The notes beneath the pieces were generated by a model. It saw only the letters and a list, made by a program, of their open reading frames with translations, was not told the DNA's origin and ran no database searches. Below, in pieces: positions 30,119-64,000 of a DNA stretch of 64,000 nucleotides. The translations under genes and the position numbers were made by a program. Source of the DNA: Curvularia clavata (lineage: Eukaryota); NCBI GenBank assembly GCA_023920165.1, contig CP089275.1:372001-436000 (forward strand), read 5' to 3'. Each line of letters starts with the position of its first letter. Within the stretch, counting starts at the first letter, position 1.

Positions 30119-31729
30119 TTAATTCTCAACATCATTGGCAACACCCATTACCATGTCAAGATCTTTCTCAGTCCTTTGCCACTCTTCCCTTACTACGTCC
30201 AGTACCCATTTTCCCCTAGGCTTTAGACAGAACTTGAACGGCTTTGGCTCGGTCATGAACCCTACAACTACCATCGACCATGGATCTATGTCCTCGCCCT
30301 CACATACTTCCACATCGAATGCCCAAAGTAGATGCGCAACGTTCAAAAACGTTCCGTCAGTAGCTACACGCTTCCCCTGACATATTCTTCGACCTTGACC
30401 GAACACGGGAAGAGGCAGGTCGCTACGAACTTTCCCATCACGAAGCCAGCGTTCGGGTACAAATTCTTCGACATCACCGTGAGATGAGTCAAACACTTTC
30501 TTGTCGCGACCAACGGCCCACGCATTTGCCATGATTGTGACGCCTTTCGAAATTTTCGCGCCAGCATATTCGTCGTCTCGATCAGCGCGTCGCGGAATGG
30601 ACCCCGGGGATATAGGCCGCCAGCGAAATAGCTCATGGGTAGCGGCGTCAATATAGGCTAGGTCTTTTCGGTCTGCGAATCTTGGGAGACGGTCGCGGCC
30701 GACGACCTCGTCCAAAACTCGATGCGCATGAGTCAAGAATTCACGATTCCGGACAGCCGCGACAAATAGCCAGAGCATCTGACGAGGTGATGTTTCCATG
30801 CCACCTTGAATTGACGTCGCAAGCGTAAAAGCAAGGTCCAGATCCGCCACCGGGTTGTCCGCGGGAGCGTGTTTTGATGCGGTTGCAATAGCTTGTTTTG
30901 TAGCATTCCAACCTGGTGCGTCTTTACCATAATTGAAGAGGCGCATATAAAGATCCACTTGCAACGAGTAGAGTTTATTGGCATACTTCTGCCACGGGGA
31001 GATCGACGTGGGCAAACGGCGCAGAAACGGCATGAGATCTGGGAGCTGAGGATTTGCCGCAAGATGAGTGACTTTTGCTTGGATATTCATGATTTCGTGA
31101 AGTACCGGATCCTCGAAACTAGGGATACGAAGGCCATAATGGAGCGCTAAGATAACACTGGATTGAGTACGTTCGAGCAGTGGGTAGAGAGTTTTTGTAG
31201 TAATTGTACGACCGTCAATGGAGTTTCTAAGAGCGTTGTTTATATCAAAAAGCAGCTGCTTAGCTTCAAGTTCCATGAGCGGTTGATACTTGTCAGCTGC
31301 AGGGGCACCCAGACTTGGCGATAGGACACGGTGGTGCAGCTTGAGATGTTCATCGTAGTCATGCATGAGTGTGAATCGAGAGCGCCCTGGCTTGGCCCCG
31401 GTAATCATTTCCATGGTTACGGAAGCTGGTCGGTTACTGTACCATTGACTGCGGCGACTGAAAAGTTCGGTAACGGCTTCTTGCGAGTTGAGAACGACAA
31501 TGGGCATAATCCCAAAGAGTCTCGTAACAATTATCGGCCCATTTCGTTCAGACCATGCGCTCCAGTTTACCATCGGCCTTTCGACTGGGGAGCTATGAAG
31601 ATCGCCAATGAGGGGCAGCTTGAGAGGTGGCTTCTCCTGTGCAGCGCGGCGATTCTTGTTGTTGATGTAGACGTAAATCAAAGTCAGTGCGCCCACTACC
31701 AGAAAGACAACCGCGGTGGAGTTGGACAT
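30119..31729 (-). CDS. Cytochrome P450, intronless
   Basis: N-terminal anchor, ELFRWRP (ExxR), FVPERW, FGQGRRICQG heme motif. Confidence 0.95.
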   Translation of the reverse strand: MSNSTAVVFLVVGALTLIYVYINNKNRRAAQEKPPLKLPLIGDLHSSPVERPMVNWSAWSERNGPIIVTRLFGIMPIVVLNSQEAVTELFSRRSQWYSNRPASVTMEMITGAKPGRSRFTLMHDYDEHLKLHHRVLSPSLGAPAADKYQPLMELEAKQLLFDINNALRNSIDGRTITTKTLYPLLERTQSSVILALHYGLRIPSFEDPVLHEIMNIQAKVTHLAANPQLPDLMPFLRRLPTSISPWQKYANKLYSLQVDLYMRLFNYGKDAPGWNATKQAIATASKHAPADNPVADLDLAFTLATSIQGGMETSPRQMLWLFVAAVRNREFLTHAHRVLDEVVGRDRLPRFADRKDLAYIDAATHELFRWRPISPGSIPRRADRDDEYAGAKISKGVTIMANAWAVGRDKKVFDSSHGDVEEFVPERWLRDGKVRSDLPLPVFGQGRRICQGKRVATDGTFLNVAHLLWAFDVEVCEGEDIDPWSMVVVGFMTEPKPFKFCLKPRGKWVLDVVREEWQRTEKDLDMVMGVANDVEN

Positions 31730-45224: not shown

Positions 45225-46445
45225 TTACTTTTCATCTAGTAATGCGCCCCTCTTCCAAGGCTGAGTACTTGGGAAATCAACTTTGCAGGGAACTGCATCC
45301 TGGTCCCAATATAACGTGGCATGTCTGAACCATGCTGCATATGTTCCATCAGCAACATCCGAACCCTCATTATCCCTCCAAAGACTCCCCAACGTCTCCT
45401 TGTACACGGCCAATATCATTCCATGTGCCAATTTGAAGCCCCAGCTTTTCTGTAGAACTGTCTGAATGATTTCTCTTGCCTTCTTCTGCTGGTCATCTTC
45501 TTTTGCCCCTCGCTCTGGCATCTTCTGTGACATTAACTCGAATTGCGCCCTCCCATTCCAGCCAGTCAAGTCGTTAATGAGCTGGCTTCCGCTCATGAAG
45601 TCAATTCCATATACATGATTCTTAACATAGTCTGGACCATTCCATCCTTCCACTTCGTCGACAAGACCCATAACCATACTGACGACCTGGCCTTGTATGA
45701 TGTAGTCTGTCAACATCTTTCCAGCTTCCTCTTTATTGATCGTAGGCTTGCCTTCTTCCCTTATCTCAAAGGACCCACCCTGTAAAGGAACACCTTTTAG
45801 CAATGGATGTGCGTGCAGTCCCTCGGTATCTGTTCGGCCTTCCCAAAGTTTAAGGAAAAGTCTATGGCAGCGACCGAAGAATTGATTGCCTCTGTTGCAG
45901 GCAAGGAAGTAATTTGTAAGATTCCTTCCATGCTGTTGTGGGCCTCTGTAGCTCAGAACTTCGTAACCAGAAGAGTGGTCTCCGATTGTTTTATTCCACA
46001 GACGATCTATATCGCCAATCTGTATCATCCCGACGTCTGCGTAAATGCCACCATATCTGAGTAACAGAGGCCAGCGGACAAGATCAGATGTGTGCTGCTT
46101 CGCGTATTTTCCACCTATCATGCCATGCACAAAAGCATCGGGAAACAAGGTCCGGTCTTCTATTTCTAGAAAATTTGCGATATTTAAGGCATCGCTAGGT
46201 TGGCAACTAACCACTCGGATCGTCCAGCCCTTTTTCGAAAATCGGCGATGCCAGGTCCGAACGTTGCGCTTCGTGTAAGGGTGTAAGGCGCTAAAGCCAG
46301 CATGCCAGAAGAACCATACGTTCTTCTGGCTGACGACAGGCCTCATACTCTGCAGCTCGGAATCGATCTCTATATCTGGCCGGAGATCGAGGCTTTGATG
46401 CGGAATGGCATGGCAGCCCTCAGGGATAAGGTGGTAAAAGTCCAT
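45225..46445 (-). CDS. Capsular polysaccharide synthesis-like glycosyltransferase (DxD-type, GT32-like)
   Basis: KNVWFFWHAG, NVRTWHRR, QHTSDLVRWPLL..YGGIYADVG, NYFLAC; intronless from MDFYH. Confidence 0.85.
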   Translation of the reverse strand: MDFYHLIPEGCHAIPHQSLDLRPDIEIDSELQSMRPVVSQKNVWFFWHAGFSALHPYTKRNVRTWHRRFSKKGWTIRVVSCQPSDALNIANFLEIEDRTLFPDAFVHGMIGGKYAKQHTSDLVRWPLLLRYGGIYADVGMIQIGDIDRLWNKTIGDHSSGYEVLSYRGPQQHGRNLTNYFLACNRGNQFFGRCHRLFLKLWEGRTDTEGLHAHPLLKGVPLQGGSFEIREEGKPTINKEEAGKMLTDYIIQGQVVSMVMGLVDEVEGWNGPDYVKNHVYGIDFMSGSQLINDLTGWNGRAQFELMSQKMPERGAKEDDQQKKAREIIQTVLQKSWGFKLAHGMILAVYKETLGSLWRDNEGSDVADGTYAAWFRHATLYWDQDAVPCKVDFPSTQPWKRGALLDEK

Positions 46446-46642
46446 CTTGTGATACAAAAGTTGATGTGCTAAGGTGCGTGTGGCTAATTGAACCATCTCA
46501 GGACGGTTCAACACTGATATATGTAGTGACAGTGAGTTAATATGACTCATGCTGAGCAATGCCAAGCAAGGACCCCATCTACCGTGTGCGTGTGTACAAA
46601 TAGAAAAGTCTCCACACAAAGATAAGAACAGACGAATAATTA

Positions 46643-47240
46643 ACGTAGTGGATACCTAGGGTAGTCGCGCAGCCCACCAAACCTTCGCACCTCTATCAGC
46701 ATATAGCTTCACCATAATACGACCATCGCAATATATATCAGTATAATAGATAGATTAGTTACTAGTTAACTATAGTATCTTTCTTACATGTACGCGCATT
46801 ATGGCCAGTCTCTCTACACCCACTGCAGCGCGCTAAAGCCTATCAGCTGATACCTCATCGCTCTCCTCCATGGCGCTGTTCATAAGCAATGCTGATCTGT
46901 CTCACGTTGCGCTAGTAGATCCTCGCCTTCTCCCTTTATAAACACCCCTCGCTTCTATATCTACTTTTTTTTTTACGCTGGCTACGCTTTATCACTATCT
47001 TTTTAGCCTGCTAGAGACCCTCTGCTAGAACAGCTAGTGGAGTAGGTGTACGCAGCTTCACGTCAAGCTTTGATAGAACACTATCTAGCTAGAGAGGCAT
47101 AAGGCCTGCGCCACAGAAGGCAGAGCAGATACCAGCTGAGGTAGACGATCGATCGAAGGCGGCCTTAAACGCTGGTAGAAACTCGAGCTTAGTAATGTGG
47201 TTGATGTGGTTGCGTATCAGGCTCTCCACCTCACGGCTAG
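46643..47240 (-). mobile_element. Fot1/pogo DNA transposon 3' remnant, RIP-mutated
   Basis: HITKLEFLPAFKAAF...GL.P...VLSKLDVKLRTPTP and terminal zinc knuckle RCSGCRETGHNARTC; ends ACGT+TA at 46641-46646. Confidence 0.88.
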
Positions 47241-47758
47241 GTGTAGCTAGCGCGCATCCGTGATTCTGATTAGCTCGCGTCGGATTTTGGCTGCGAAAAT
47301 GGAACGGCAAGCCCATGACTGCAGACCTGGATGCTTCAGGACTGCCTGATTCCTATGGGGATTACTCACGACCCTTAATTGTGGACTCTGTAGCCTAGCC
47401 AGCCGGTAAAGCCAGACATGTCATGTGATGGTCCTAGGCTTACACTTAGCGTTACGAAACGACAACAAAGCAGAAGAAAAAAGAAGCAGAAAAAGCTGCA
47501 GTTGAGATAGCTGCTAAAACTCTGTAATCCATGTGTAAAGAGTGGCAATTGTAATTAGGTTGACTGAAATAAACCCGATCTTCTGAGGGGTGGCCAATTT
47601 CATCATGTGGTCGGAAACCCAACCCTATGTGGCTGGGAACTAGATAGGCTAGCTTATCCCAAAGTTCCTTGAATGTCGATCCATCCATCTTCCCCGGACC
47701 CCAGACTAGCGCATGTCAATGGCTGACAGTTTACTGTGTAGTTTTAAAGCCCACATTG

Positions 47759-47803
47759 CGGGATCGTTCCCGTCACTTATCTACCGTGCCGGGTCCACGG
47801 CCG
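47759..47803. promoter_or_regulatory. Two CGG-N8-CCG Zn2Cys6-type sites with an intervening GATA site (CTTATC), permease promoter
   Basis: CGGGATCGTTCCCG 47759-47772; CGGGTCCACGGCCG 47790-47803. Confidence 0.65.
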
Positions 47804-48054
47804 ACCCCCGCATTTGATCTTATGCGACACATTGATCCCTACTGGGTCGCCTTAAACAGGCTAGCCGTATCAGACTTGTGCAAGATGCCCTGTGCAGGAA
47901 CCTGACCAGGCAGTCCTTCGTGAAGGATATGTATACAGGGCCTTGGACCGCAATTTCCAATCTTTTATCTCGACACTCTCTATGCCTCTTTCACCTCTTT
48001 ACTATCCAATCTTGTATACACCCAGTCTTGTATAATATTTTGGGCCCTCTGACG

Positions 48055-49972
48055 ATGGAGGATAACAAGAAAGAGAAGGTCATCGATATCTCGACCGCTG
48101 GGGACCTCTATCTAGTCGAGACAACGGGCGAGCCTATAGCGGGCCATGTCGGCAATGCAGACGAGCTCCAGCGACATCTGGGAAATCGTCAGCTGCAATT
48201 GATTGCTATTGGTATGTATTTACTAGGTTATCGCAAGAGCCGACGTGAAAAAACGGTGGAAAAGTCTCCGAGTTCTTGCAGGGGCACTTCACTTTGCCAA
48301 TTCTGAGATGTTTACTGACATGTCTCAGGTGGATCCATCGGAACAGCAACCTTCGTCTCCATCTCCAGTGGTCTGCTCAAGGGCGGGCCCGGTTCCCTCT
48401 TCCTCGCCTACACCATCTACACCTGCATGTTGGGATTAGTCAACAACTGCCAAGCCGAAATGAGCTCCTATATGCCCGTTACTGGTGGTTTTATTCGCAT
48501 GTCTGGTAAATGGGTCGACGAGGCTTTGGGCTTCATGATTGGTTGGAGTGAGTCCTGTGTTCGCGGTGAACTAATTGACTATACTAAATTACTGCAGACT
48601 TCTTCATTTACGAGGCCATTCTTGTGCCCTTTGAAATTACCGCACTGAACCTTGTCTTGTCCTTCTGGCGCGATGATATACCCGTGGAAGCCGTCGTGGC
48701 GGTATGCATTGTGCTCTACTTCTGTATCAACGCATTTGTTGTCAAGTGGTACGGAGAGTGCGAGTTTTGGCTTGCCCTTGGAAAAGTGTTCCTCCTCCTT
48801 ATGCTCTTCTCTTTCACCTTCATTACTATGGTCGGCGGCAATCCCAAGCATGACGCGTATGGCTTCCGCTACTGGAAGAATCCTGGCTCTTTCGCTGAAC
48901 ACATTACAACGGGTCCTCTCGGCCGATTCGAGGGTTTCCTTGGTGCCCTGTGGAGTGCAGCTTTTACCGTCGTCGGCCCAGAGTATGTGTCCATGGTTGC
49001 CGGCGAGGTCAAGAGCCCGCGAAAGTACCTCAAGCAGGCGTTCAAGGCAACATATGCGCGTTTCGGTCTATTCTTCATCGGTAGTGCGCTCTGTGTCGGT
49101 ATTGTTATCCCGTACAACAATACAACTCTAGTCGATATCTTCAACGGCAAGGCCGGTGGCGCCGGAACTGCGGCGGCCTCTCCATACGTCATCGCCATGA
49201 ACAGTACTTCTCCCTTCTAAATCCTAACACGAGTACTCTAAAGCTAATTTCTTCTCTAGACCTGGGCATCCATGGCCTTCCACATCTCACCAACGCCCTC
49301 CTCGTAACCTCGATTTTCTCCGCTGGCAACGCCTACACCTACTACGGTACGCGCTCCCTCTATGGCCTCGCCATCGAGGGCCAAGCGCCTCGCTTCCTGA
49401 GAAAATGCACCAAGGCCGGCGTCCCCATCTATTGCCTCTGCATTACGACCCTGTTCCCCTTCTTCGCCTTCCTCAACGCCTCCTCGGGCTCGGCCAAAGT
49501 TCTGACCTGGCTCACCAACATCATTACCGGCGCCCAAATCATCGACTACATTGTCATCTGCATCAACTTCATCTTCTTCTACCGCGCGTGCAAGGCGCAG
49601 GGCCTCGACCGCCGCTCGCTGCCATATTTCGGCCGCTTCCAGCCGTGGTCTGCATATATCCCACTGGCGTTTTTGACGTGTGTGGTTACGTGCTACGGAT
49701 ATACGACGTTCCTCCCAGGGAACTTCACGGTTGACGACTTCTTCACTTACTACATGATGCTGCTGGTGGACCCGGTGCTGTTCATTGGCTGGAAGCTGTG
49801 GAAGAAAACAAAGTTCATTAAAGCGAGCGAGGCGGATCTGGTATGGGATAAACCGATTATTGATGCTTATGAGGATGCACTAGAGGAGGAGAAAGTAGGG
49901 TTCTGGAGGGATGTGGGGAATATGTTTGGGAAGTGCTTCATGAAGAGGAAGAAGGTGGACGAGGAGAAGTGA
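48055..49972 (+). CDS. APC/YAT-family amino acid permease (proline-permease-like)
   Basis: LQRHLGNRQLQLIAIGGSIG, AEM, YGECEFW, GFRYWKNPG, SPYVIAM, TRSLYGLA.EG.AP; introns 48212-48328, 48548-48597, 49204-49259. Confidence 0.95.
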
Positions 49973-50389
49973 GGGACGGAGTGGATGAGGTCCATGACTT
50001 TGTGGAGCTAAACAGAGGATCCGGTGGCATAATTACATTGTATACCTAAATGGGACGTTTGACGTCCACGGAAATCACACGGTTTCAATCCTATAAATGG
50101 GTTCCGCTCGCTACTCTTGCTAAGCATTGAATTTGACCAGAATGCTCCGACCAGGGCTCTACACTTTCGCAACATTGCATCCCACCCCATGGTAAACTTT
50201 TGAAGAACTGGATTTGAGGTCCTCGTGCGGAGCTAGCTTTGATTAGGCACAATGTTCGCTGCTCGCAGCCACCCAATCCGCCAGCCCTCAAGTCCTAGCG
50301 CGGGAACGACGCATGTCACGCATCACAATCAGCGCGGAGCCTCCGATTGCCAGCCTGCATCTCTCCGCGTCCGCGAATATGCGGCCACT

Positions 50390-50403
50390 CGGGTGGCATT
50401 CCG
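50390..50403. promoter_or_regulatory. CGG-N8-CCG site, aminotransferase promoter
   Basis: CGGGTGGCATTCCG. Confidence 0.65.
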
Positions 50404-50568
50404 GGCATACAGCTCGAATCCCACATACATTGCCCCGACGCCCAACACGGCTAGAGCATAGTCCAGTATACATGTATACATATATACAAGTGCAAAATCC
50501 GTGTGTACCTCCTGTTTCCGCGACATCTTTGTAGCGACTTTCTATCAGGGCTTTCTGCAATTACAAAC

Positions 50569-51900
50569 ATGTTCCGCAGCGTTCCCCCCAGCCCCGCAGA
50601 CCCCGTGTATCTCCTCTCGCAGCAGGTACGCGAGGACACGGCGCCTGAGAAAGTTGACCTTGGCGTTGGCGTGTATAGGAATGAGAGGGGGCTGTATCAC
50701 GAGCTGAGGGCGTTGGGGGCGGTTTGTACGCCAGTCAAAATTGGTAATTCAAGTCTAATCACAAAGGGCACAGGCAAAGCGTATCCTCGCACAGCAAGAC
50801 GCGAATCACGACTACGAAGTGACAACGGGCAGCGCGGCGTTCCTGACTAACGCTGCAAAAGTGCTATTCGGATGGGAGGCAGATATTCTGTCTTCGGGGA
50901 GAGTGACTTCTGTACAGGCCATCTCAGGCACGGGTGCCATCCACCTCGGCGCCCTCTTCCTCGCCCGTACGCCCTCATTCCAAGGAAAGAAAGTCTACAT
51001 CGGGACCCCAGCGTGGGGAAATTACGTACCGCTGTTCAACCTCGTTGGCTTCGAAGTGGTGACGTACAGGCACTACGATGTCTCGACCGGAACAGTGGAC
51101 TTTGACTCGGTGCTTACAGCGACGAGAAGCGCAGATGCAGGGAGCATATTCGTGCTACAGGGATGCTGCCACAACCCATCTGGTGCCGACTTCTCGCTCG
51201 CGCAGTGGGATAGGCTCGCCGATGAGATGCAGGCGAAGAAGCTGTTCCCGCTGTTCGACATGGCATATCAGGGGCTAGGTGCGTCGCTGGATGAAGATGC
51301 ATATGGTCTGCGATTGTTTGCGGGCAGGAACTTGGAACTCCTCGCTTGTCAGTCTTTTTCGAAGAACTTTGGATTGTATGGGGAGAGGGTAGGTGTGCTG
51401 CATGCTGTGAGTCAGGATGCGGATGTTGCGGCGAGGGTGTATGAGAGATTGAGGTGCTTGATTCGGTGGGAGTTCTCGTCCAGTCCGGCGTATGGCGCGC
51501 GACTAGTGAACATTATACTCAGCGACAACGAATTGCGACAGGACTGGCAAACAGAATTAGCGCAGATTCAGAAGCGGCTTGCCGACAATAGAAAAGCACT
51601 GCACGCGGAGCTGGTTGAGAAGCGTAGTGTGAGTATTTCCCATTGCCCTCACTTGATGGCATTTCGCTGATTCGAATATGTCCAAAGGCTCCAGGCAACT
51701 GGAGCTCGATCCTCTCGTCAAATGGCCTGTTCTGTTTCCTTCCGCTGAGCCCCCAGCAATGCGAACGGCTTGCCGCTGAGTTCCACATCCACATGCTACG
51801 GAACGGGCGCATCAACGTGGCCGGGCTGAACCGGAGCAACATGGATCACGTAGCTTCGGCACTCGTGAAAGTGATGAGCTCACCGTTCTCACGCTTGTGA
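50569..51900 (+). CDS. Class I PLP aminotransferase (aspartate aminotransferase family) with PTS1 -SRL
   Basis: KVDLGVGVYR, SGTGA, HNPSG, DMAYQG, SFSKNFGLYGERVG (PLP Lys), GRINVAGL; introns 50722-50773 and 51629-51687. Confidence 0.95.
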
Positions 51901-51969
51901 GTCTACATGTTAACAAGCCAGATAGCTCGTAATGGCGATATCTGGGCAGCACCGATGCAATGTGAGGAT

Positions 51970-52007
51970 CGGGAGCGTGCCCGACATGTTGCTCGGATGG
52001 GCAGCCG
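51970..52007. promoter_or_regulatory. Two CGG-N8-CCG sites upstream of the Zn2Cys6 regulator
   Basis: CGGGAGCGTGCCCG 51970-51983; CGGATGGGCAGCCG 51994-52007. Confidence 0.65.
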
Positions 52008-52340
52008 GTGGCCCATGCACGCGCTAGAATTAAAAGTGCCGTAATAGTATGCTGAGGGAACAATATCCCGCAAGTAGATTCAAACTTGCAGGCTGCATAT
52101 CAGATGACGTGTGAATTCGAAGGACCTCTCGTGAGGGAGCGTTTGTTGAAGGAAACGGAGAACTGTAGAAAGCTCAGATTAGAGAATGAGTCGCGCTAGA
52201 TAGCCACATTCCACTAGCGTTGGACTTCCCCGCAAATTGCCATCTCGTAACGTGACGCTTGACCTCATCTCAGGCCACGCCGCCTATAGTTGTATACCGT
52301 GAGTTCGTTGCATTGCTGCAGCTAGCCATGTGACACGTTT

Positions 52341-55104
52341 ATGACTGCAATGCAGACGATGCCCAACTCGAGCGAACAGCGACGCGCTTCTAAGCGATCT
52401 TCCAACGCGTAGGGAACCCTTCCGATAGACGTGCATCCGCTTATCAGTGAAGGTGCTCACGGTGTCGACGGCAGAAGATCAAGTGCTCGGGACTGGAGCC
52501 TTGTTCAAACTGTACCAAGAGGAACTTGAGCTGTGTTTTTGACGATCGGGACAATAAGGTGCTGGTCACGCAGGGGTGAGTCAGGCCTTGTTTAATTTTG
52601 TTGAGATCAACAGGCACGATTCTGCTATCTGTCCCGAATCAGAAACCTATGTCGCCTTTTGGAATGCAATGGCAATCTGCAAACTGACTGATTAATAGTT
52701 ATCTCTCTGACCTGCAACAAAAGGTCGCTCGTTTGGAGCGAAGTTTGAGTCACATAGAAACTAACCCTGCCTTGGCCCGTGAATCTCGGGAGCATGGCGA
52801 GGATCAAGTTCAGGCTGGCAGCTTCCACCGGGAACAATCTCTTCAGCCCCCTCGTTGTGGTGACCGTGAACCGGGGGAGACCTCTCGATCGAGTCCTACA
52901 GAGACGCGGGACAACTCTCCAAAGACAGATCAGGGGAATGGGGAAAGCCATGAATTGACAAACCCCTTGCTTGAATCGCCCTCCAAGTTCATGGCCGCTT
53001 CATCCGGGAGGTCATTCTATTTAGGGACTTCCTCCAATTGGTCTTTCCATGGCCAGGTGCTGAATGTAGTTCATCAGCATATCCGCAGAACCCCTCTGCC
53101 CGGAACAGACTTCCTGTTCGATGGGTCGGCGTACGATCTTCCTTGGGTAAGTTGTCATAACTTGATACATTGAAGGCCTTGGCTTTGTGTACCTTGCTGA
53201 CTTGCATGCGATTCCCAGGACGGCACTCGTAGTGTGCTAGAGACAAATGCTCCTGTCATTCCAAGTATCGATTACGCCATATTTCTTGTCAATGCTGTCA
53301 AGTTCCATTGTGGTCAGTTGGTACATTTGTTTGATGAAGAAGAGTTCAACGCCAAGATGTATGCGTTCTACGGGAATGCAGAACCCAACAAGCCTCAGGA
53401 AGGCTTGTGGTATGTTCAGTTTCTACTAATCATTGCCTTTGGAAGGACACTTGTACAACGCAAACACCGAGCATCTAAGCCGCCTGGAGCCGATTTCTTC
53501 GTACACGCTCTTCAGCTACTACCTGATACCAGCCGATTGTGCCGAGAACCACTCTTGGCATCAGAGATACTATGCGGTATCGCTCTCTATCTGCAAGCAC
53601 TAGACTCGCGCAACGCTGCACATGTAACAGTAAGCTTTGTCTGTTTACAAATTTGTAACAATCACTAAGTATCATCAAGATAGGCCAAGCGATGCGAATA
53701 GCATTAGCAGAGGGTATGCACACGGACATGCCAGTTTCAGAACTAGGAGAAGCCTTCGTTCAGCGATGTCGCAAGATCTGGTGGTCCATCTATATTCTTG
53801 ACAGGCAGATGAGTTCGCAGATGGGCGTACCGCAGTCCATACGGGACGATGAGATAACGTGCCAGCTCACACACTTTCCTGGCTCGGTTCAGCGGACAGC
53901 GGCGTTGAAGATGCAGATCAGGCTCGCGCGTATATACGCGGATATAGCGAGGAGTAAGTCGGCTGAGCTCTGGTCACGGACATTATCCAACACGATGGCG
54001 ATCAAATCGGGCATAGGTCCGTTCCAGGCTAACAATACGCAGGCGTTTATGGCCCGAAAGGTCGGCTTCGTAAGAAGTTTGTCATTAGTATCAAGGCTCT
54101 GCTCGACGACATGGCAGCAATCGCAGAGGAACTACGAAATTCCTTCCCTTTGCATTCCGATGAGCGGCTCGGTGGTATATCAAGAATGCCTGCGCATCTG
54201 CATCTAATGTACTATCAGGTATGTCAATACTCCATGTGTGCTGCGTGAATGTAATATCTACCAAGTTTATCGCGCCGTACATGCATGTCTGAACTCAATG
54301 GAGCTGCTACATTGCGTTCCCCGCTGATCATTTTGCGTAGACAATCGTTGTAACAACGAGACCACTACTGTTTTGTTGTCTGAAGAAAGTGTTCGAGTCT
54401 CCAAAAGAAGTGGGACCGCTGGTATCGTCTCGCAAGATCAGGCCTCTGCTAAGCATGTCATTGGATGCTTCACAGAAGATTCTCAACATCCTTGAGAGCC
54501 TGCAAGAGCAGGACTTGTTAGGTATAACTAGTGTAGCGTATTGACAAGTCCATCAAAACTGACAGATTAAATAGAGACTTTTCTTCCATGGGACCTCGAC
54601 TCCCTCTTTGTGTCCACAATGGTTCTCGTCTTGATACGATTCGTCGATGATACCCTTTCCGAAAACAGTTCCGCCTGGATAAGCAAGGCCTTTGCTTTCC
54701 TCGATACCATGATATCAAACGGGAACAAAATTGCCGAATCCAGGGCTGCTGAGTTGCGTAAGCTGGAGGAACTGCTATCCGAGTACTCTGTAAACCGGAC
54801 TCGCCAGCAATACACGACACCTCTTCTACCTCAACAACAGCAACCCGTGGGTCAGTACCAACCACCACCAGATAGGAACTTGATGCGCTCCGACATGCAA
54901 TCGCCGCAAATCATGATGAATTCCGAAGCTATGGGGATGTATACTGCATTTAGCGACGAGAGTAGCGGATTCGGCGACGATTTGACTGCAGAGCAGATTC
55001 TTGCTGTGGCGGAGTCAATGGATCTGGGTACGACTGATTGGCTCAACACGCTCGCGACTATGGATACATATCAAATGGTGGATCCACAGGAGCATCACAT
55101 CTAG
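52341..55104 (+). CDS. Zn(II)2Cys6 transcription factor with fungal TF middle domain (Put3/PrnA-like)
   Basis: CSRCRRQKIKCSGLEPCSNCTKRNLSC after intron 52409-52452; YLGTSSNWSF; RCRKIWWSIYILDR..S..MG.P; about 7 introns; start may be 52341, 52350 or 52359. Confidence 0.92.
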
Positions 55105-55417
55105 AATGTTATTATATCGATCTGGGAGTTCATGAAAACGGCGAGAGTTAAGTAACAAGGTCTTGGGATGTTCTTGCAAGTGTTCGGCTCATGGTGCATC
55201 CAAAACACATACAATGCAGAAATTAACCATAAGAGATGTGGCGTGTAGTAAGATGATACGGAGCAGGCTCTGCAGGGGAGACCTTTGGTTTGTTTCGGCA
55301 CATTTGTCACAAGCAAGGAGTTCTCAGTCATGTCAAACTCGACAGTCAATTTTCAGAAATAAAACGATAGTCTAATTCGCGCTCCAATCTGGGCTATCCA
55401 ACCATGAACCCACAACA

Positions 55418-56799
55418 CTACAACTTCGCCCTGACCGGTTGCTCGGACAGATCGCGGAGCTCTCTGACATCTCCCACTCGCCAGCTCACGTCGGCTTCTT
55501 CAATCGTCTCGCCATTGACGGGCTTCGGTTCCCTCCACCGCCACCTCTTGATCGGCTGCTGTCCGCCCGACGCGTTCAACAGGTCACGCACCCAACTACC
55601 TACGATAGGGAACATCTTGAAACCGTGACCGGAATCGCCGGTCATGACCATAACCGAAGCCGATGTCTTGGGCACGTAGTCGATGATGAAATCCGAGTCA
55701 TCGGTATCAGCGAACCAGCACAGTGACTTCTTGACCAACGGTCGGTCCGCAAGGTGTGGCAGTGTCTGACGGAGGAGCTCCTTCATCTTGAGCTCATCCT
55801 CGTACGGTACAAAGCGGTTGACTTCTTCCGGCGCTTTCGACACACCACTTGAAGGATCCGTATTGATGTAGCCGCCGCCCATCGGGCACAGCTTGAGGAG
55901 GTTCGTCTTCGGGTCTGGCTCGAAAAAGAAGCCCAAGTCACGGGCATATACAACGGGAATACCGCGGAGCGCCGCAGTCTCGTCGTCAGTGAGGCGTACA
56001 TGGCCGACAGACCACGACTTTGCTGAGACATTGGTGCTCAGCTCCGGCAGAATCTTGTGCGCAGCAGCTCCTACTGCAACAATAATGAGGGATGCAGGGT
56101 GCACGCGACCATCCTGGGTTCGTACACCAGTGCCCCGCCTCCCCCGACTGGTGTTCTCATAGACAACTTCCTCAACCGCGCCGACCTTCTCACCGAGGAA
56201 AAACCTCACACCGTTAGACCTCGCAGCACGATAAACACCACGCAGCGCATTCGCAGAGTGCACGTAGCCGTCATATGTGTTTATATAGCCTCTCCATCCG
56301 GGCAGAGCGCCAGTGAACTGCCAGCATGCTTGAAGGAGATCTTTACGGTCACTAACCTTACGGACGAAAGGTCTTATGACGGAGCTGCGCTCTGCCGCTG
56401 CTTGAAACCGCTCCATTGTGTCGACGGCCTTTTGGGGAGCAGCTTCCGAGCAGCAGTTTAGAAAACCGACACGGTGGAAGTAGGGGGCGTAGAAGGGTGT
56501 TTGCCATTCTTTCATTGCTTCCTGATTCCTGGGTTAGATGGGGGTGTTTTTCTTTTTCAGCAAACGCAATTTGAGGGGGGGAGGCATACGATTGCAAGAT
56601 CAGTGTACCAGTCGTCCTCATACTCTGCTCGTGCAATCTTATTGAGATCGTTTGCAGCGGACCAACGCGAAGGAATCTCTTCGTCCTTCTCGAAAACAGT
56701 GATGTTGGTGTATCCGTTTCTTGAGAGCTCGAGCGCTGTGGATAGACCAAATGCACCGCCGCCAATAATAGCAATAGGTTCGCTCCCAGGAAGAGTCAT
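55418..56799 (-). CDS. FAD-dependent oxidase of the sarcosine/pipecolate/fructosyl-amine oxidase family with PTS1 -AKL
   Basis: IIGGGAFG, SAANDLNKI, LCWFADT (flavinylation Cys), GDSGHGFK; intron 56589-56522. Confidence 0.93.
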
Positions 56800-57070
56800 T
56801 TTGAGTAGCTGTAACTATTCAATGAAACTGCGGTGCAGGAATGTGTCGCAGAGATGTCCCTACTTTGTAAACAACACGTCGCGAAGCGATTTTGCAACAA
56901 TCTCAACTACAATCAGGCGATGCTTGGCCGGCATCGGAATTACCGGAATAGGAACTGACGATATGCAATTGCGGGGAATTGACGCAGGTAGTGGGGCAAC
57001 GCGAGCTGGTGCCCTACGGGAGGCCTGCCGATGTATTGTCTATCATCATGCACATGCATTGAACTACTGA

Positions 57071-57181
57071 CGGAATGCTTACCGTATGGCTTCAAATTGA
57101 TCCCATGATAGCATACCGTTAACGGAGGCCACGATGCGCTTCTGGAACAAGGCAATGAATACGAGATCGGGCAATTAACCG
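57071..57181. promoter_or_regulatory. Two CGG-N8-CCG sites in the divergent oxidase/membrane-protein promoter
   Basis: CGGAATGCTTACCG 57071-57084; CGGGCAATTAACCG 57168-57181. Confidence 0.65.
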
Positions 57182-57335
57182 AAAGCTCAACACATCAGCC
57201 AGTGACCATTTTGGTCCGCGTTACATACACGTAGACTTGGGCGATTGGATGTATGTGCTTGAGAATTTGTGGACATCTTGGTTTGATATAGTTGGAATTG
57301 GGAAACTGGCCTTTTTTCGCTTCATCACTGTTCTC

Positions 57336-58239
57336 ATGACGGAGCTTGTCGAAACTCAGAGCATCACTCGAGGTTGGCGAAACAGTCGACTTCCTAGCTA
57401 CCTAGCCGGCGATGTTTCTGCAGCTTGCCTCTCAGCTACACTCATATCGCCCATTCTCACGGCGATAGACAAGTGGGTCCCCTTTCACACTTCTCCATTT
57501 TCATATTGTAACCTCTCATAGAGCTGTCGTCGAAAATGTCTCCTCAACCACGCGGCCCCTCTCAACCGCACTGAAAGAAAACATACTCTGCACCATCCGC
57601 TACCCAAAGTCATTCTTTGCTGCAAAACCCTTCTTCTACATGTGGATGCTCTATGCAGCCACCTACACTACTGCCAACAGCCTGAACACCCTCACTAGCA
57701 TCTCCATGAGCAAGTCCTCAGAATTCCTTGCCAATTCACTCATCTTCATCGCAACGTGCACCGTCAACGTTCCACTCGGGGTCTACAAAGACATCTGCTT
57801 CGTGCAAACGTTCGGCAGGCGGCCCCCAGGACCCGTGAATACGCCTCAAACTAAACCACCGCTTCCCCCTCGATCTCCCACCAAATTTCCCAAAGCTGTA
57901 GCAGCAACTTTCCTCGCTCGCGACGCCATTACCATCCTGGGCTCCTTCACCCTCCCGCCCATGCTCACACACCGCATCCCCATCGCCGATCCCGCGGCGC
58001 AAATGGCGGCGGCGCAGCTGCTGGTGCCAGTCCTGTCGCAATTAGCGGCAACGCCTGTGCATCTTCTGGGGCTGGACTTGTATTCGATTCCTGGAAAGGG
58101 AGAGAGAGGAGAACGGGCGCGGCGGATACGAAGAGGATTAGCAGGGACGACGGCGGTGCGATGTGCTAGAATTGTGCCAGCGTTTGGGGTGGGGGGAATT
58201 GTGAACACGGGGTTGAGGGGGTGGTTCAGGGGGGAGTAG
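57336..58239 (+). CDS. Uncharacterised membrane protein, mitochondrial-carrier-like (resembles the S. pombe SPBC365.16 family)
   Basis: SPILTAIDKAVVEN, LYAATYTTAN, GVYKD, FLARDAITI, TPVHLLGLDLY, RIVPAFGVGG..N; intron 57473-57521; family call from memory. Confidence 0.8.
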
Positions 58240-58855
58240 AGGATGGTGGTATGAGGGCAGAGAGGTTGTGAGGGTTCGAATTGAATGTTGATAATATGTG
58301 GGGACGGCGATTAAACAACCGTTGTGTTTGTGGCCAACATCCAGCTTCTAGATAGGCACGTTCCAGAACAGCAGCTTCTTTGGAACTACGACTGTGTTAC
58401 ATTGTTTTTTATGTTTATGCACCTTCATTCTTGGTGAGTGGCTCAGATATGAAGCACACTTAGAAAACCGGGGATAAAGAACATTCAAAAGCGGCAATAG
58501 CAGATCATTTCTACCAAGTGTATATCGCGTAAGAGCAAGCCGCATTAGGCAATGGAACAAGTATGATTACGAATGTGCTAGTAGCCAAGCTAGGTATGCA
58601 TACCACGAGCACTAGGATATTCGAAACTGGGCAGCCATCTCAAGCTTCAGGCACCAATAAAGCCAATGGAGCTTCTCGATATCGATTCATTCGCTTCAGT
58701 GTTCGTTGCATACTAGATGCAGACGATTCGATAGTCGGTTCCAGAAGGCTACCATCGGCTTCTACAGGGCTAGAGACAAGAGTAACCGCCCGGATCATTA
58801 TTCCGTTATCGATCACGCACTACACGTATAAGCTAAAACGCGGCGCTCTGCGAAT

Positions 58856-58869
58856 CGGCTGCCTGTCCG
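58856..58869. promoter_or_regulatory. CGG-N8-CCG site, proline dehydrogenase promoter
   Basis: CGGCTGCCTGTCCG, with TTATC GATA-type sites nearby. Confidence 0.65.
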
Positions 58870-59120
58870 TTGTATGACTACTTATCGGGAGCAGCATGCG
58901 TTGCTCATGGGTTAGCCTACTTTGTCTACGGAAGCACAGATCTCGCTGGAGAAGCAGATGCGGGGTTGTCGTTTTCAGGTGCCTGTGTATGGCTTGGTGG
59001 GGTATACAGCAAGTATATGAAGATGGTTATTTTATTGTAATGGTCCGCCATTTGGTCTCGAGGCTACCTTGCCCATTGAACGTTTCTTCGCTCAACTAAG
59101 AGACGCTACCCGGAATAACA

Positions 59121-60653
59121 ATGCTACCATATAGGATCGGTGTGGCGACCACAAGGAGATTGGCAAAGAATAGGTTGGCCACTGTATCTTGCCTCCAGGT
59201 TCGGTGGCACACTGGTGTCATTCCACCGACGAGGAATGTCGGAGCACACACAGGAATGAGCAATGATACAACAACAATATCGCGGACGACAAAAGTATTC
59301 TCTCAAGAGGTAGCAGCATCAGATGCACCATTGTAAGTATGATTATGGCCCCTCGTTCTGGCCTGCACAAGCAGTGGGAACAACTCAAAAACCTCCACTG
59401 ACAAAATCATGAGAGCAAAAATGCCTCTTGAGATGTTCCTTCGATCTTTTTTCATAGCCACCATATCTTCTAAGAGATACCTTTTGATACCCTCCTTGAA
59501 ATTGTTGTCATTTTTCGCGAAACCAGGCAGGAGCTACCTTTTCAACGTGGATCGGAATCCCGTCCTCCATGGAATCCTCAAGAAGACTTTCTATAACCAG
59601 TTTTGTGCGGGCGAGTCGAAGCAGGAGACGAAAGCTTGCTGCAAGTCTTTGAACAACCTCGGTTTCAGAGGAGTCATCCTCACATACGCCAAAGAGATGG
59701 TGTTCAACCACAAGAGCAAAGCATCGAGCGTCCACGCTGAACAAGCAGCAAAAGCAGAGACCGTATCAGCACATGATCCCGTGATCGAAGAGTGGCGCGT
59801 AGGAACGCTCGCCACGGTCGACATGATCGACAAAGGCGACATCCTCGCACTCAAGACTACCGGTGGCGGGCCCGCCGTGGGAGAGGCCTTCCACAGAGGC
59901 GAGCTGCCGCCACAGCAGATGATGGATGCCCTCGACGAGATTGCAACCAGGTGCAAAGAACGCGGAATCCAGATCATCGTAGACGCCGAGTCGCAGTACT
60001 TCCAGAAAGGCATCGCTCGCACGGCGCTCGAGCTGATGCGGAAGTTCAATCGCGAGCCCAAAGTCGTCATCTACAACACATATCAGGCGTACCTAAAGAA
60101 CCAACCCAGGTATCTCCAGCAGCATCTCGCTGAGGCAGAGAAAGATGGCTTCACTCTCGGCTTGAAGCTCGTTCGAGGCGCGTACATGTTGTCTGACGAC
60201 CGGTCTCTGATCCATGATACAAAGGAGGACACTGACGCAGCATACAACGGCATCATGGAGGGTGCCCTCCAGCAGAAGCTCTGGGATTTTGGTGTCTCGC
60301 GACCGTTCCCGGCGCTCAACCTATTCCTTGCTAGCCACAACAAGAAGAGCGTCATCACGGCACAGCGATTGCATGTGCAGCGGGAAAAGAGTGGATTGCC
60401 TACAGTGCCGGTTGCCTTCGCACAGCTGCATGGTATGTCGGATGAGGTTGGTTTTTCGCTTCTGAAGGAACAGTGCGCAGACGGAAAGGCACCAGATGTT
60501 TTCAAGTGCTCAACCTGGGGGAGCATGGGGGATTGCGTGGCGTATCTTTTGCGGAGAGCGGTAGAGAATCGGGATGCGGTGTTGAGGACTAAGGATGAGT
60601 TCGATGCATTGAAGAAGGAGTTCTGGAGACGGATGGGACTTAGGAGAGCGTAG
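59121..60653 (+). CDS. Proline dehydrogenase family (PRODH), divergent paralogue with mitochondrial-type presequence
   Basis: FYNQFCAGE, VDAE, YNTYQAYLK, KLVRGAY, ASHN, AQLHGMSD, YLLRRAVEN; Arg-rich, acid-poor N-terminus; intron from 59333. Confidence 0.95.
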
Positions 60654-61081
60654 GAGACAGGTTTCACGTCATAAGCGCATGAAACAACATGAATAAAGTC
60701 ATAAGATTGATATTTGTTTGTTTCCCAGATCTTTGTGGGTTTTGTAATCAGCAGTGTTTCTCTTCGCTCCGACTCATTCCCGTCTCTGAGCAGCTATACA
60801 CAGCTGTACGTTGTAGGTCATTCTTGAGACTGTCTCACAAGCACGGAAATGTAATCGTCTATTCGTGTATGTCGGGCCCTATGTCTTCAAGCGACTCGGG
60901 CTGAATATCCCCAAACCAAGAGGTTGCCATGAATATCTGTGTTCTTGGAAAGACATCCGCCTATTTAGATACAGAAAGCGTCTGACTCATCCATACACAT
61001 TGCTAGGCATCATCATCTCTGCGGATCGATGGTGTCATGAACGATAATAATGCATCGCGATGTGGGGCAGGGGCACCCAAT

Positions 61082-61095
61082 CGGCGAGGCAGCCG
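61082..61095. promoter_or_regulatory. CGG-N8-CCG site, P5C reductase promoter
   Basis: CGGCGAGGCAGCCG. Confidence 0.65.
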
Positions 61096-61224: not shown

Positions 61225-62199
61225 ATGGCTGGCTCTACTCTGTGCATTCTTGGCTGCGGTAAATTATAAGACCCCAACGATAAAATCACCATCTCACATA
61301 GAACCCCAGGCAATCTAGGAACATCCATATTGGAAATTTTAATCGAGGCCCCAGAAGGCTCCGGAGTCTGTTTCACGCATTTCATAGCCTGTGTATATAG
61401 TGCTGCATCGGAAGAACGGTTAGCAAAGCGCTTTCCCAAGGAGAAAGAGTCTGGGAAACTTGTCATCTCTCGCAACCAGAACGCACGTGCAGTCTCAGAT
61501 GCCTCAGTCGTGATTCTAGGCGTGGATCCCGCAGACGTCGAAGCAACTCTAAAGGACGACGGCGTCGCAGCGGGTCTGAGGGGCAAACTTGTTATCAGTA
61601 TTGCCGCAGGTTGGTCGCGCGAAAGCCTACAAAAGATCATCTCCTCTGCCCAAGGATCACCAAGCAGAGATGAGAGAACATGGGTCCTCCGCACCCTTCC
61701 CAACGTGGCGGCGCAGGTGTCCCAATCGCTCACTGCAATCGAAGACCCAGACCCAGACATGCCTCACAAGCACATCAAAACTTGCGAAGCCATCTTTAAC
61801 CAGCTCGGCCGCACGGTGCAGCTCGCTCCGAAACTCATGGCTCCCGCATCTGCCGTGGGTGGCTCGACACCCGCCTTCTGGGCCATCATCTGCGACGCCT
61901 TTATTGATGCGTCTGTTGCAGTGGGCGTCCCTAGAAAATCTGCGCAAGAGATGATATATCAGAGCATGCGGGGCTCGGCGGAGATGTTGCAGAGTGGAAT
62001 TCAGCCAGGGGAGTTGCGGGATATGGGGACGAGTCCGGAGGGGTGCACAATTGGGGGGATTATGGTTATGGAGGAGATGGGGGTGAGGGGGGCGTTAGGA
62101 AAGGCGCTGAGGGAGGCAGTCACGCTTGCACGTTTGATGGGCAGCGAGAGGGAAGGGCTGCATATTAATGATACGAGGGAGAATACGGGTAGGCAGTGA
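61225..62199 (+). CDS. Pyrroline-5-carboxylate reductase family (divergent paralogue)
   Basis: LGCGNLG across intron 61259-61309, VISIAAG, RTLPNVA, GSTPAF, TSPEGCTIGG. Confidence 0.93.
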
Positions 62200-63173: not shown

Positions 63174-63640
63174 TCAATCCGAACATGAAATCGACCCAAA
63201 TTCATTCTTCGTCGCTTCACACTACGTAGAATGCACGTAACCCTTCAGACACGCCAGACTTGTGGTAAATTTCCAATTCATGATTCTCGACGACTCAATC
63301 CCACCACAGTGCGTGCGCAACGCTGTGCTTCCACGGCCCTTGAGATTGTCCCAGAGGCTGCTGAACTAGCCAGGGAATAATGCATTTTATTAACCGTCGT
63401 AATTTGAATCGATACAAATCTGGGGAGAGCATTGGGCAACCAGAGGGAGAAGAGATGTAGAACGGGACGGGAAAATATCTGTTACGCACTTCTATAAACG
63501 TGTTCCGTCCAAATGTCCCAGTTCAAGAGAATATTGCTATCCTAGTCGACGGTAGTAGAACATGAAGCTACGGCCACGGTTTCAGTCATGGCGACAAGGG
63601 CCACAAGGATAGAAGAGATGGAGAGAGTATTGAAGCACAT
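63174..63640 (-). pseudogene. Small secreted Cys-containing protein pseudogene
   Basis: Signal peptide MCFNTLSISSILVALVAMTETVAVASC; distal frame SLWDNLK...HCGG...WKFTTSLACLKGYVHST*CEATKNEFGSISCSD; TAG at 63542-63544 and 63222-63224. Confidence 0.7.
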
Positions 63641-64000
63641 CTTAGCAGTGGCGTTTAACAAAGCTCTTTTGTGGTTTTTCAAATTGGGCTTCTGAGAAGG
63701 CGGTTCAAGTACACGAATTTTGTGAGTGGAAGAGTGTCTGGCAGGTAGAATTAGAGCTTTAGGGATAGAAGTAGGAGCCTGTGGGATCACTGATTCCTTC
63801 TTAGATAGATCAACATATACAAATATATGCGTCTCTTTTGTAGTGTGCATACGTTTCTGATGCTAGAGCTCCCAATCCGTAGGTGTCGTCAAGTTCACCT
63901 TAGTAGGGCGCCTGTTGCTAGCATCGAAAGATGTCATAGTGTAGGACCAATAGTCGAGACGTAGATAGAGAGAGATAATCAAATAGAGTAATCAATTGAG

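Follow-up and report, generated by a model that had tools for sequence, protein, structure and literature searches.

A proline dehydrogenase with Cys at the substrate gate as the candidate entry enzyme of a proposed clustered hydroxyproline pathway in Curvularia clavata

We analyzed a window of 64,000 nucleotides from Curvularia clavata (contig CP089275.1, positions 372,001 to 436,000), in which a gene of the proline dehydrogenase (PRODH) family sits in a nine-gene cluster extending from 47.7 kb to just past the window end. The PRODH gene (59121–60653, plus strand; PF01619) consists of two exons (59121–59332 and 59414–60653), and the intron between them (59333–59413) was placed from spliced RNA-type contigs of close relatives, with GT..AG present in the window. 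The 483-aa product starts at a predicted start codon at 59121, and its Arg-rich N-terminus is a probable mitochondrial presequence. The open reading frame (ORF) scored 165.5 bits against PF01619 (cut-off, 27), and its AlphaFold model (pLDDT 84.8) matched PutA/PRODH folds best (Z 26–29), placing it in the family by profile and by barrel fold alike.

Upstream of PRODH lie an amino acid permease (47702–50086, the span covered by spliced contigs, plus strand; PF00324, TIGR00913; three introns), an aspartate-aminotransferase-type PLP enzyme (50569–51900, plus; PF00155, PRK09257), a fungal transcription factor (52289–55104 with an approximate 5′ end, plus; spliced contigs), putatively of the Zn2Cys6 type on the basis of PF04082, an FAD oxidase of 437 aa (55418–56799, minus; intron at 56522–56589 from spliced contigs), and a conserved fungal membrane-type protein (57237–58239, plus). 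By PF01266 and PDB relatives, the oxidase (DAO family) belongs to the sarcosine/pipecolate/fructosyl-amine oxidase group; its closest solved structures are those of fructosyl-amine oxidases, and it has a GHGFK motif, which we take to be that of sarcosine and pipecolate oxidases. The membrane-type protein had no Pfam or NCBIfam match and fell in Atlas ‘sequence orphan’ clusters at 0.91–0.94; it is possibly an organellar carrier. Downstream of PRODH are a separate pyrroline-5-carboxylate reductase (P5CR) paralogue (61225–62199, plus; PF14748, TIGR00112; intron at about 61259–61309), other P5CR-like genes being present in the genome, and, past the window end, a DHDPS-family aldolase (L015:1232–2200, minus, 231 bases past the end) and a P5C/glutamate-semialdehyde dehydrogenase (P5CDH; L015:2728 to about 4554, plus), whose partial frame scored 603.8 bits against TIGR01236 (cut-off, 613.6). 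A second P5CDH (about 54%) is unlinked, on C1. A span of about 17 kb holds the PRODH, P5CDH, aminotransferase, and aldolase families, which are those of the animal 4-hydroxyproline route.

A PRODH–P5CR fusion at this locus was considered and rejected: PRODH has a stop at 60651, and the reductase begins with a spliced exon of its own. One contig crosses the PRODH stop into the 3′ UTR (60421–60889), and no PRODH–reductase joint was among the joints listed in three RNA-type runs. Many annotated PRODH–P5CR fusions (P0005, P0009, P0013, and others) seem to be gene-model joins, and several fused database entries lack the YLLRR helix, as expected of gene-model error.

Several other features were observed around these genes. 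In a DNA run, contig depth was very high over a TA-rich, repeat-like stretch at the left edge of the cluster (46750–47240), and the long shared contig of that run starts at 47211; the stretch is possibly a decayed mobile element. Directly after P5CDH, a short ORF (L015:4744–5223, minus) without a Pfam match resembles, by eye, a transposase helix-turn-helix remnant, and between the reductase and the aldolase, a small ORF (63542–63850, minus), also without a Pfam match, has a signal-peptide-like stretch. Outside the cluster are a single-exon gene that is cytochrome-P450-like by eye and the sole member of its 90% cluster (30119–31729, minus) and a capsule-polysaccharide-synthesis-type gene (45225–46619, minus).

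Positions 60501–60521 read TTC AAG TGC TCA ACC TGG GGG in the frame of the Pro_dh ORF, giving F-K-C-S-T-W-G before the YLLRR helix. The Cys codon (60507–60509, plus strand) is residue 367 in the ORF counted from the ATG at 59409 and residue 436 of the spliced protein, and residues 364–370 form a strand in the model. A preliminary description had noted this Cys and aligned it by eye with Tyr540 of Escherichia coli PutA; the codon was read directly, and the alignment held. The PutA sequence (1TIW/1TJ2) here is RIYAPVG...AYLVRRLLEN, with S in place of that Y in the Y540S chain 3E2Q, and the ungapped spacing of C367, Y379, R382, R383, and E386 equals that of Y540, Y552, R555, R556, and E559. A phmmer alignment to Geobacter PutA likewise placed the window Cys over the PutA Tyr. 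Profile alignments at this strand were ambiguous by one or two residues, and a register with Tyr540 under F365 (HMMER, with a two-residue gap in wild-type PutA) was rejected because Tyr-bearing fungal relatives fix the column: their Tyr falls in exactly the Cys column, between a fixed K and WG, which settles the register. On these alignments, we consider it confirmed that Cys occupies the Tyr540 position and that the Tyr typical of proline-specific PRODHs (PutA, Put1, and PrnD type) is missing. The other pocket residues are all kept: D192 and L340 correspond to Asp370 and Leu513 of PutA, and Y379, R382, R383, and E386 to Tyr552, Arg555, Arg556, and Glu559. The preliminary description had also relied on Tyr540 as the residue that enforces proline over hydroxyproline in PutA; this role is reported in the available text of PMC3718742, and PDB 3E2Q is, by its entry title, PutA Y540S bound to trans-4-hydroxy-L-proline.

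We investigated the distribution of residues at this gate position. Among the 120 closest homologues, which span Dothideomycetes, Eurotiomycetes, and Sordariomycetes, the column was Cys in 118, Ser in two, and never Tyr. Human hydroxyproline dehydrogenase PRODH2 has Ser here, and the small gate residue of animal HYPDH/PRODH2 is thus matched by all 120. We regard the Cys as a clade trait and, given its frequency of 118/120, as neither chance nor a sequencing change. Among 151 divergent rows (the third PRODH copy of this genome and 150 representatives chosen at 50% identity, a few of the rows being poorly aligned fragments), the column held Cys in 55, Tyr in 50, Ala in 8, Leu in 4, Asn in 2, Phe in 1, and Gly in 1, with 30 gaps, and Tyr and small residues interchanged at least nine times on a 73-row tree (70 of them database rows picked by hand because the taxon was named or the coverage good; built without the motif columns). 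Distant non-clade PRODHs at loci L077, L078, and L080 have Leu at the gate (AKLIPYG). In the same tree, which contained no PRODH2 sequence, the window PRODH nested inside fungal PRODHs with a nematode-containing outgroup, and the gate change therefore looks independent of that in animals.

Three PRODH loci were found in this genome, and all carry Cys: the window copy, a native copy (C6:2760.9–2764.0 kb; 66%; FKCTTWG), and a distant third copy (C2:5510.0–5511.5 kb; VKCMTWG), in which Asp370 is replaced by Gly and Tyr552 by Phe. Next to the C6 copy is a P5CR-like gene that has diverged and carries a long TCAC microsatellite at the 5′ end, and the GAE type of the third copy recurs in other Dothideomycetes. 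No Tyr-type PRODH was found in the genome by profile and protein searches, including Tyr-type queries, or by a DNA pattern, with the top candidates scored; all seven DNA-pattern matches were not PRODH. The genome is thus likely devoid of a Tyr-type enzyme. On the tree, Tyr-bearing sequences, some auto-named PrnD, form a group with the third copy (SH-aLRT 97), suggesting that the likely housekeeping orthologue has also lost the Tyr, and Cys by itself is therefore no mark of a hydroxyproline enzyme. Since all three copies carry Cys and no Tyr-type copy was found, some Cys-type PRODH of this genome probably oxidizes proline, although the Gly and Phe of the third copy mean that its own proline activity is not assured. 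The claim of the preliminary description that the pocket is enlarged for 4-hydroxyproline or a larger ring is consequently upheld only in part: the position, the Y540S precedent, and the gene context favor it, but the residue alone is insufficient, being labile and present in all three copies.

In an alignment, the cluster aldolase keeps Lys196, Tyr168, and Asn78 of HOGA, has Thr at Ser198, and lacks Arg138 of DHDPS (active-site residues as given in the available text of PMC3188589), and its GTNAE, YNFPG, and GVKLT motifs stand against GSNGE, YSVPA, and GMKDS. Other DHDPS-like paralogues of the genome share these features, with G-S/T-N-x-E in all four examined and K-x-T in three of the four, so the HOGA-type residues mark the 4-hydroxy-2-oxo-acid aldolase class and not HOGA itself; the cluster aldolase is predicted to belong to this class. 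Its closest solved relative is PDB 3QFE (E = 5e-137), a putative DHDPS-family protein deposited without an assigned reaction.

The cluster genes share a promoter motif. CGG-N8-CCG occurred in all seven cluster promoter regions, with 13 sites in the window (47759, 47790, 50390, 51970, 51994, 57017, 57071, 57168, 58856, and 61082, together spanning 47759–61095) and past its end (L015:2392, 2478, and 2600), compared with an average of 0.76 and a maximum of 5 sites under a Markov null. The best of 48 patterns covered all seven regions in 1 of 2000 null trials, and other CGG-N-CCG spacers gave 0–2 sites across the seven regions. Exact sharing of 7- and 8-mers among the cluster promoters was at chance level. 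CGG-N8-CCG was also found upstream of 20 of 24 orthologous PRODHs (any other spacer, at most 5/24), which belong to the 33 clade loci described below and are not all independent, and before one of seven out-of-clade controls. Elsewhere in the genome, a weak single site preceded the C6 copy and another the unlinked aldolase on C1, and none preceded the third PRODH or the unlinked P5CDH. The PrnA binding sites given in the available text of PMC5983819 are CCGG-N-CCGG and CCGG-6/7N-CCGG; the PrnA-type spacings of 1, 6, and 7 gave 0, 0, and 2 sites, respectively, against the 13 at spacer 8. The absence of the motif at the distant PRODH and the unlinked P5CDH, together with a spacing unlike that of PrnA, suggests a regulon distinct from that of proline use. 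The Zn2Cys6 factor of the cluster probably acts through this motif.

Linkage was also seen in other fungi. PRODH and the aldolase were on same-size contigs, judged by eye, in 12 of the 12 named species present in both match lists, and the five pairs looked up, from three Dothideomycetes and two Sordariomycetes, were 1–6 accession numbers apart. In Bipolaris maydis, EMD94611 and EMD94610 are adjacent. The oxidase and PRODH were on same-size contigs in 20 of 24 named species (by eye), the four misses being multi-member or multi-contig clusters. In a metagenome set, 33 of 49 fetched loci belonged to the clade, many of them short and some duplicates; within the fetched DNA, the companions were the reductase (17), oxidase (14), regulator (11), and membrane protein (11), and more rarely P5CDH (5), aminotransferase (5), permease (4), and aldolase (2). 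The five loci with 10 kb on both sides contained the oxidase in five, the regulator in five, the reductase in four, P5CDH in three, the aminotransferase in two, and the aldolase in one. At one locus (L065), the cluster was rearranged and comprised P5CDH, the oxidase, the regulator, the membrane protein, the aminotransferase, and the aldolase. The aldolase is thus a looser companion than the oxidase (2/33 vs. 14/33 loci) and may lie beyond the fetched flank in some loci. None of the top 120 aldolase matches was Alternaria-named, and some lineages therefore seem to have dropped the aldolase from the cluster. Of all results, its patchy presence speaks most against a fixed four-step unit.

The C-termini of the oxidase, aminotransferase, and aldolase are AKL, SRL, and ARL, respectively, all PTS1-like. 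Strict PTS1 was found in 99/120 oxidase, 28/120 aldolase, and 0/120 PRODH homologues, and SRL in three of five aminotransferase loci, two of which are duplicates. This pattern suggests a route that starts in the mitochondrion and has its second half in the peroxisome; given the aminotransferase and aldolase endings, glyoxylate may be released in the peroxisome. In close relatives, all seven genes from the permease to the reductase are covered by contigs, several of which are spliced; these contigs come from three runs guessed to be RNA and bear on splicing only, not on levels or conditions. Transcripts of the convergent regulator and oxidase genes (52289–56799) assembled into one contig in the three runs, suggesting overlapping 3′ ends. 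In Aspergillus fumigatus, the available text of PMC2526178 reports poor growth on hydroxyproline and induction of neither annotated proline oxidase (log2 0.41 and 0.21). This counts weakly against hydroxyproline as the substrate, neither oxidase being established as an orthologue.

The phylogeny bears on the origin of the cluster. The window PRODH and a B. maydis protein nested within Didymosphaeriaceae (support 100/97 and 100/99), and the C6 copy grouped with B. oryzae and B. zeicola (100/99). Over 247 columns, the window PRODH was 92.7% identical to that of Paraphaeosphaeria and 67.2% identical to the C6 copy. An AU test rejected a Pleosporaceae clade holding both copies (p = 1.8e-111); the group tested follows taxonomy, but the test came after the first tree had been seen. 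The aldolase and oxidase were likewise closest to Didymosphaeriaceae (91–92%). B. maydis holds both PRODH copies, and within 40 kb around the C6 copy, we found no cluster gene beyond the P5CR-like one. The nesting of the window copy in Didymosphaeriaceae, with the native copy elsewhere, suggests horizontal transfer, most simply read as acquisition from Didymosphaeriaceae coupled with loss by decay of the native cluster, the direction being based on taxonomy and one gene tree.

We propose, with a probability of roughly 0.6, that the window PRODH is a hydroxyproline-oxidizing enzyme and the entry of a clustered, co-regulated fungal hydroxyproline pathway. In this probably mitochondrial paralogue, loss of the Tyr gate would allow 4-hydroxy-L-proline to be oxidized, probably with some proline activity left. 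The permease would take up the substrate, the Cys-type PRODH would convert hydroxyproline to 3-hydroxy-P5C, and the P5CDH of the cluster would yield 4-hydroxyglutamate, from which the aminotransferase would form 4-hydroxy-2-oxoglutarate, to be cleaved by the aldolase to pyruvate and glyoxylate. The likeliest role of the oxidase and reductase would be that of an upstream arm, making hydroxyproline from an N-substituted or otherwise modified imino acid or restoring it from stray 3-hydroxy-P5C. The residue and its register, the families of the genes and their clustering, the promoter motif, the transcripts of relatives, and the position in the tree are observed, and from these all substrates, compartments, and regulatory links are inferred. 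Hydroxyproline is strongly favored by the context, namely P5CDH, the aminotransferase, the HOGA-like aldolase, and the shared promoter motif. Against it stand the oxidase and reductase, which the animal pathway does not need, the labile gate residue with Cys in all three PRODHs of the genome, and the strict PTS1 on just 28 of the 120 aldolase homologues.

The constant presence of the oxidase and reductase could instead mean that PRODH acts on a different imino acid, for example pipecolate, 4-hydroxypipecolate, or an N-substituted compound resembling saccharopine: a peroxisomal oxidase would form a cyclic imine, the reductase would convert it to a stable imino acid, and this would be imported and re-oxidized by a wide-pocket mitochondrial PRODH. 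The most constant companions in the 33 clade loci are indeed the oxidase, regulator, and reductase, the oxidase accompanies PRODH in 20/24 named species, and its automatic database labels read ‘sarcosine oxidase/L-pipecolate oxidase’. Moreover, according to the available text of PMC12899673, P5C reductases produce pipecolate from P6C, and pipecolate is a better substrate of E. coli ProC than either 4-hydroxyproline, both of which are used weakly (140 vs. 55 and 27 per M per s in the oxidative direction). Yet we consider this reading unlikely, as the 4-hydroxy-2-oxo acid required by the aldolase is not obtained from plain pipecolate, the dehydrogenase belongs to the P5C (TIGR01236) type with only 115 bits against the piperideine-6-carboxylate model, and the remaining ring contacts, Asp192 and Leu340, are unchanged.

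It seems less probable still that the window PRODH is a broad proline/hydroxyproline dehydrogenase serving mainly proline, in a prn-like cluster of regulator, permease, PRODH, and P5CDH with accessory genes. The four prn-type functions are present (compared with the available text of PMC5983819), and such a role would fit a genome with no Tyr-type PRODH found and a third copy whose own proline activity is not assured; this third copy, however, groups with Tyr-bearing PrnD-type sequences and, like the unlinked P5CDH, lacks CGG-N8-CCG, the PrnA-type spacings are nearly absent, and the aldolase is not needed for proline use. We also considered whether the Cys might simply be tolerated and barely affect specificity, any altered substrate choice resting on other residues. 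The column also holds Ala, Leu, Asn, Gly, and Phe, and its repeated changes on the tree are in line with tolerance; against this, the clade column is Cys or Ser in 120/120 and never Tyr, and Y540S in PutA is a precedent for an effect, which makes mere tolerance very improbable. Hydroxyproline oxidation remains the preferred reading.

The cluster as read here would work like the vertebrate hydroxyproline pathway, with a gate change that looks independent. The available text of PMC8779045 describes that pathway as PRODH2, P5CDH, AspAT, and HOGA1, with all steps mitochondrial. The fungal cluster contains the same four enzyme families (PRODH2/HYPDH, ALDH4A1, AspAT, and HOGA1), with a small gate residue, as the Ser of PRODH2, and HOGA-type active-site residues. 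Unlike the vertebrate genes, the fungal genes are clustered with their own regulator, permease, P5CDH paralogue, and an extra oxidase and reductase, and the endings of the aminotransferase and aldolase suggest peroxisomes instead of an all-mitochondrial route. The PRODH resembles E. coli PutA (1TIW, 3E2Q) in fold (Z 26.7) and pocket residues, but it has a natural Cys at 540, is monofunctional, shares about 18% identity, and reads KLVRGAY where PutA has RLVKGAY. Like the Aspergillus nidulans prn cluster (prnA, B, C, D, and X), this one groups a Zn2Cys6 factor, permease, PRODH, and P5CDH; in contrast to prn, its PRODH is apparently of a different clade (in a tree without A. nidulans PrnD itself), it adds the aminotransferase, aldolase, oxidase, and reductase, and it carries CGG-N8-CCG instead of PrnA spacings. 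The ORFs scanned included no gene resembling prnX.

No description of this cluster, or of a genetic route for fungal hydroxyproline use, was found in the literature searched, which largely excluded subscription papers, and the available parts of PMC13234024 and PMC10647483 contain nothing on the substrate. The present analysis contributes the motif common to the promoters, the transfer, the pattern of PTS1 endings, and the finding of no Tyr-type copy. Taken at its widest, the proposal would be that of a widespread, self-regulated fungal cluster for hydroxyproline or plant-derived N-substituted hydroxyproline, with an independent HYPDH-like loss of the gate, a split between mitochondrion and peroxisome, an oxidase/reductase entry arm, and transfer as a whole from Didymosphaeriaceae to Curvularia and B. 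maydis after decay of the native cluster; we put this forward tentatively, at somewhat less than even odds.

Plant wall glycoproteins and collagen are rich in hydroxyproline. With candidate genes, a regulator, and its putative site, fungal hydroxyproline use becomes directly testable, and the many natural Tyr, Cys, Ala, and Leu variants can be used for probing the Tyr540 specificity rule. The case is also a warning that the gate residue alone is unfit for annotating substrate. The cluster is a well-supported case of catabolic genes transferred between fungal families, and its enzymes are possible surrogates for human HYPDH and HOGA1, which are hyperoxaluria targets.
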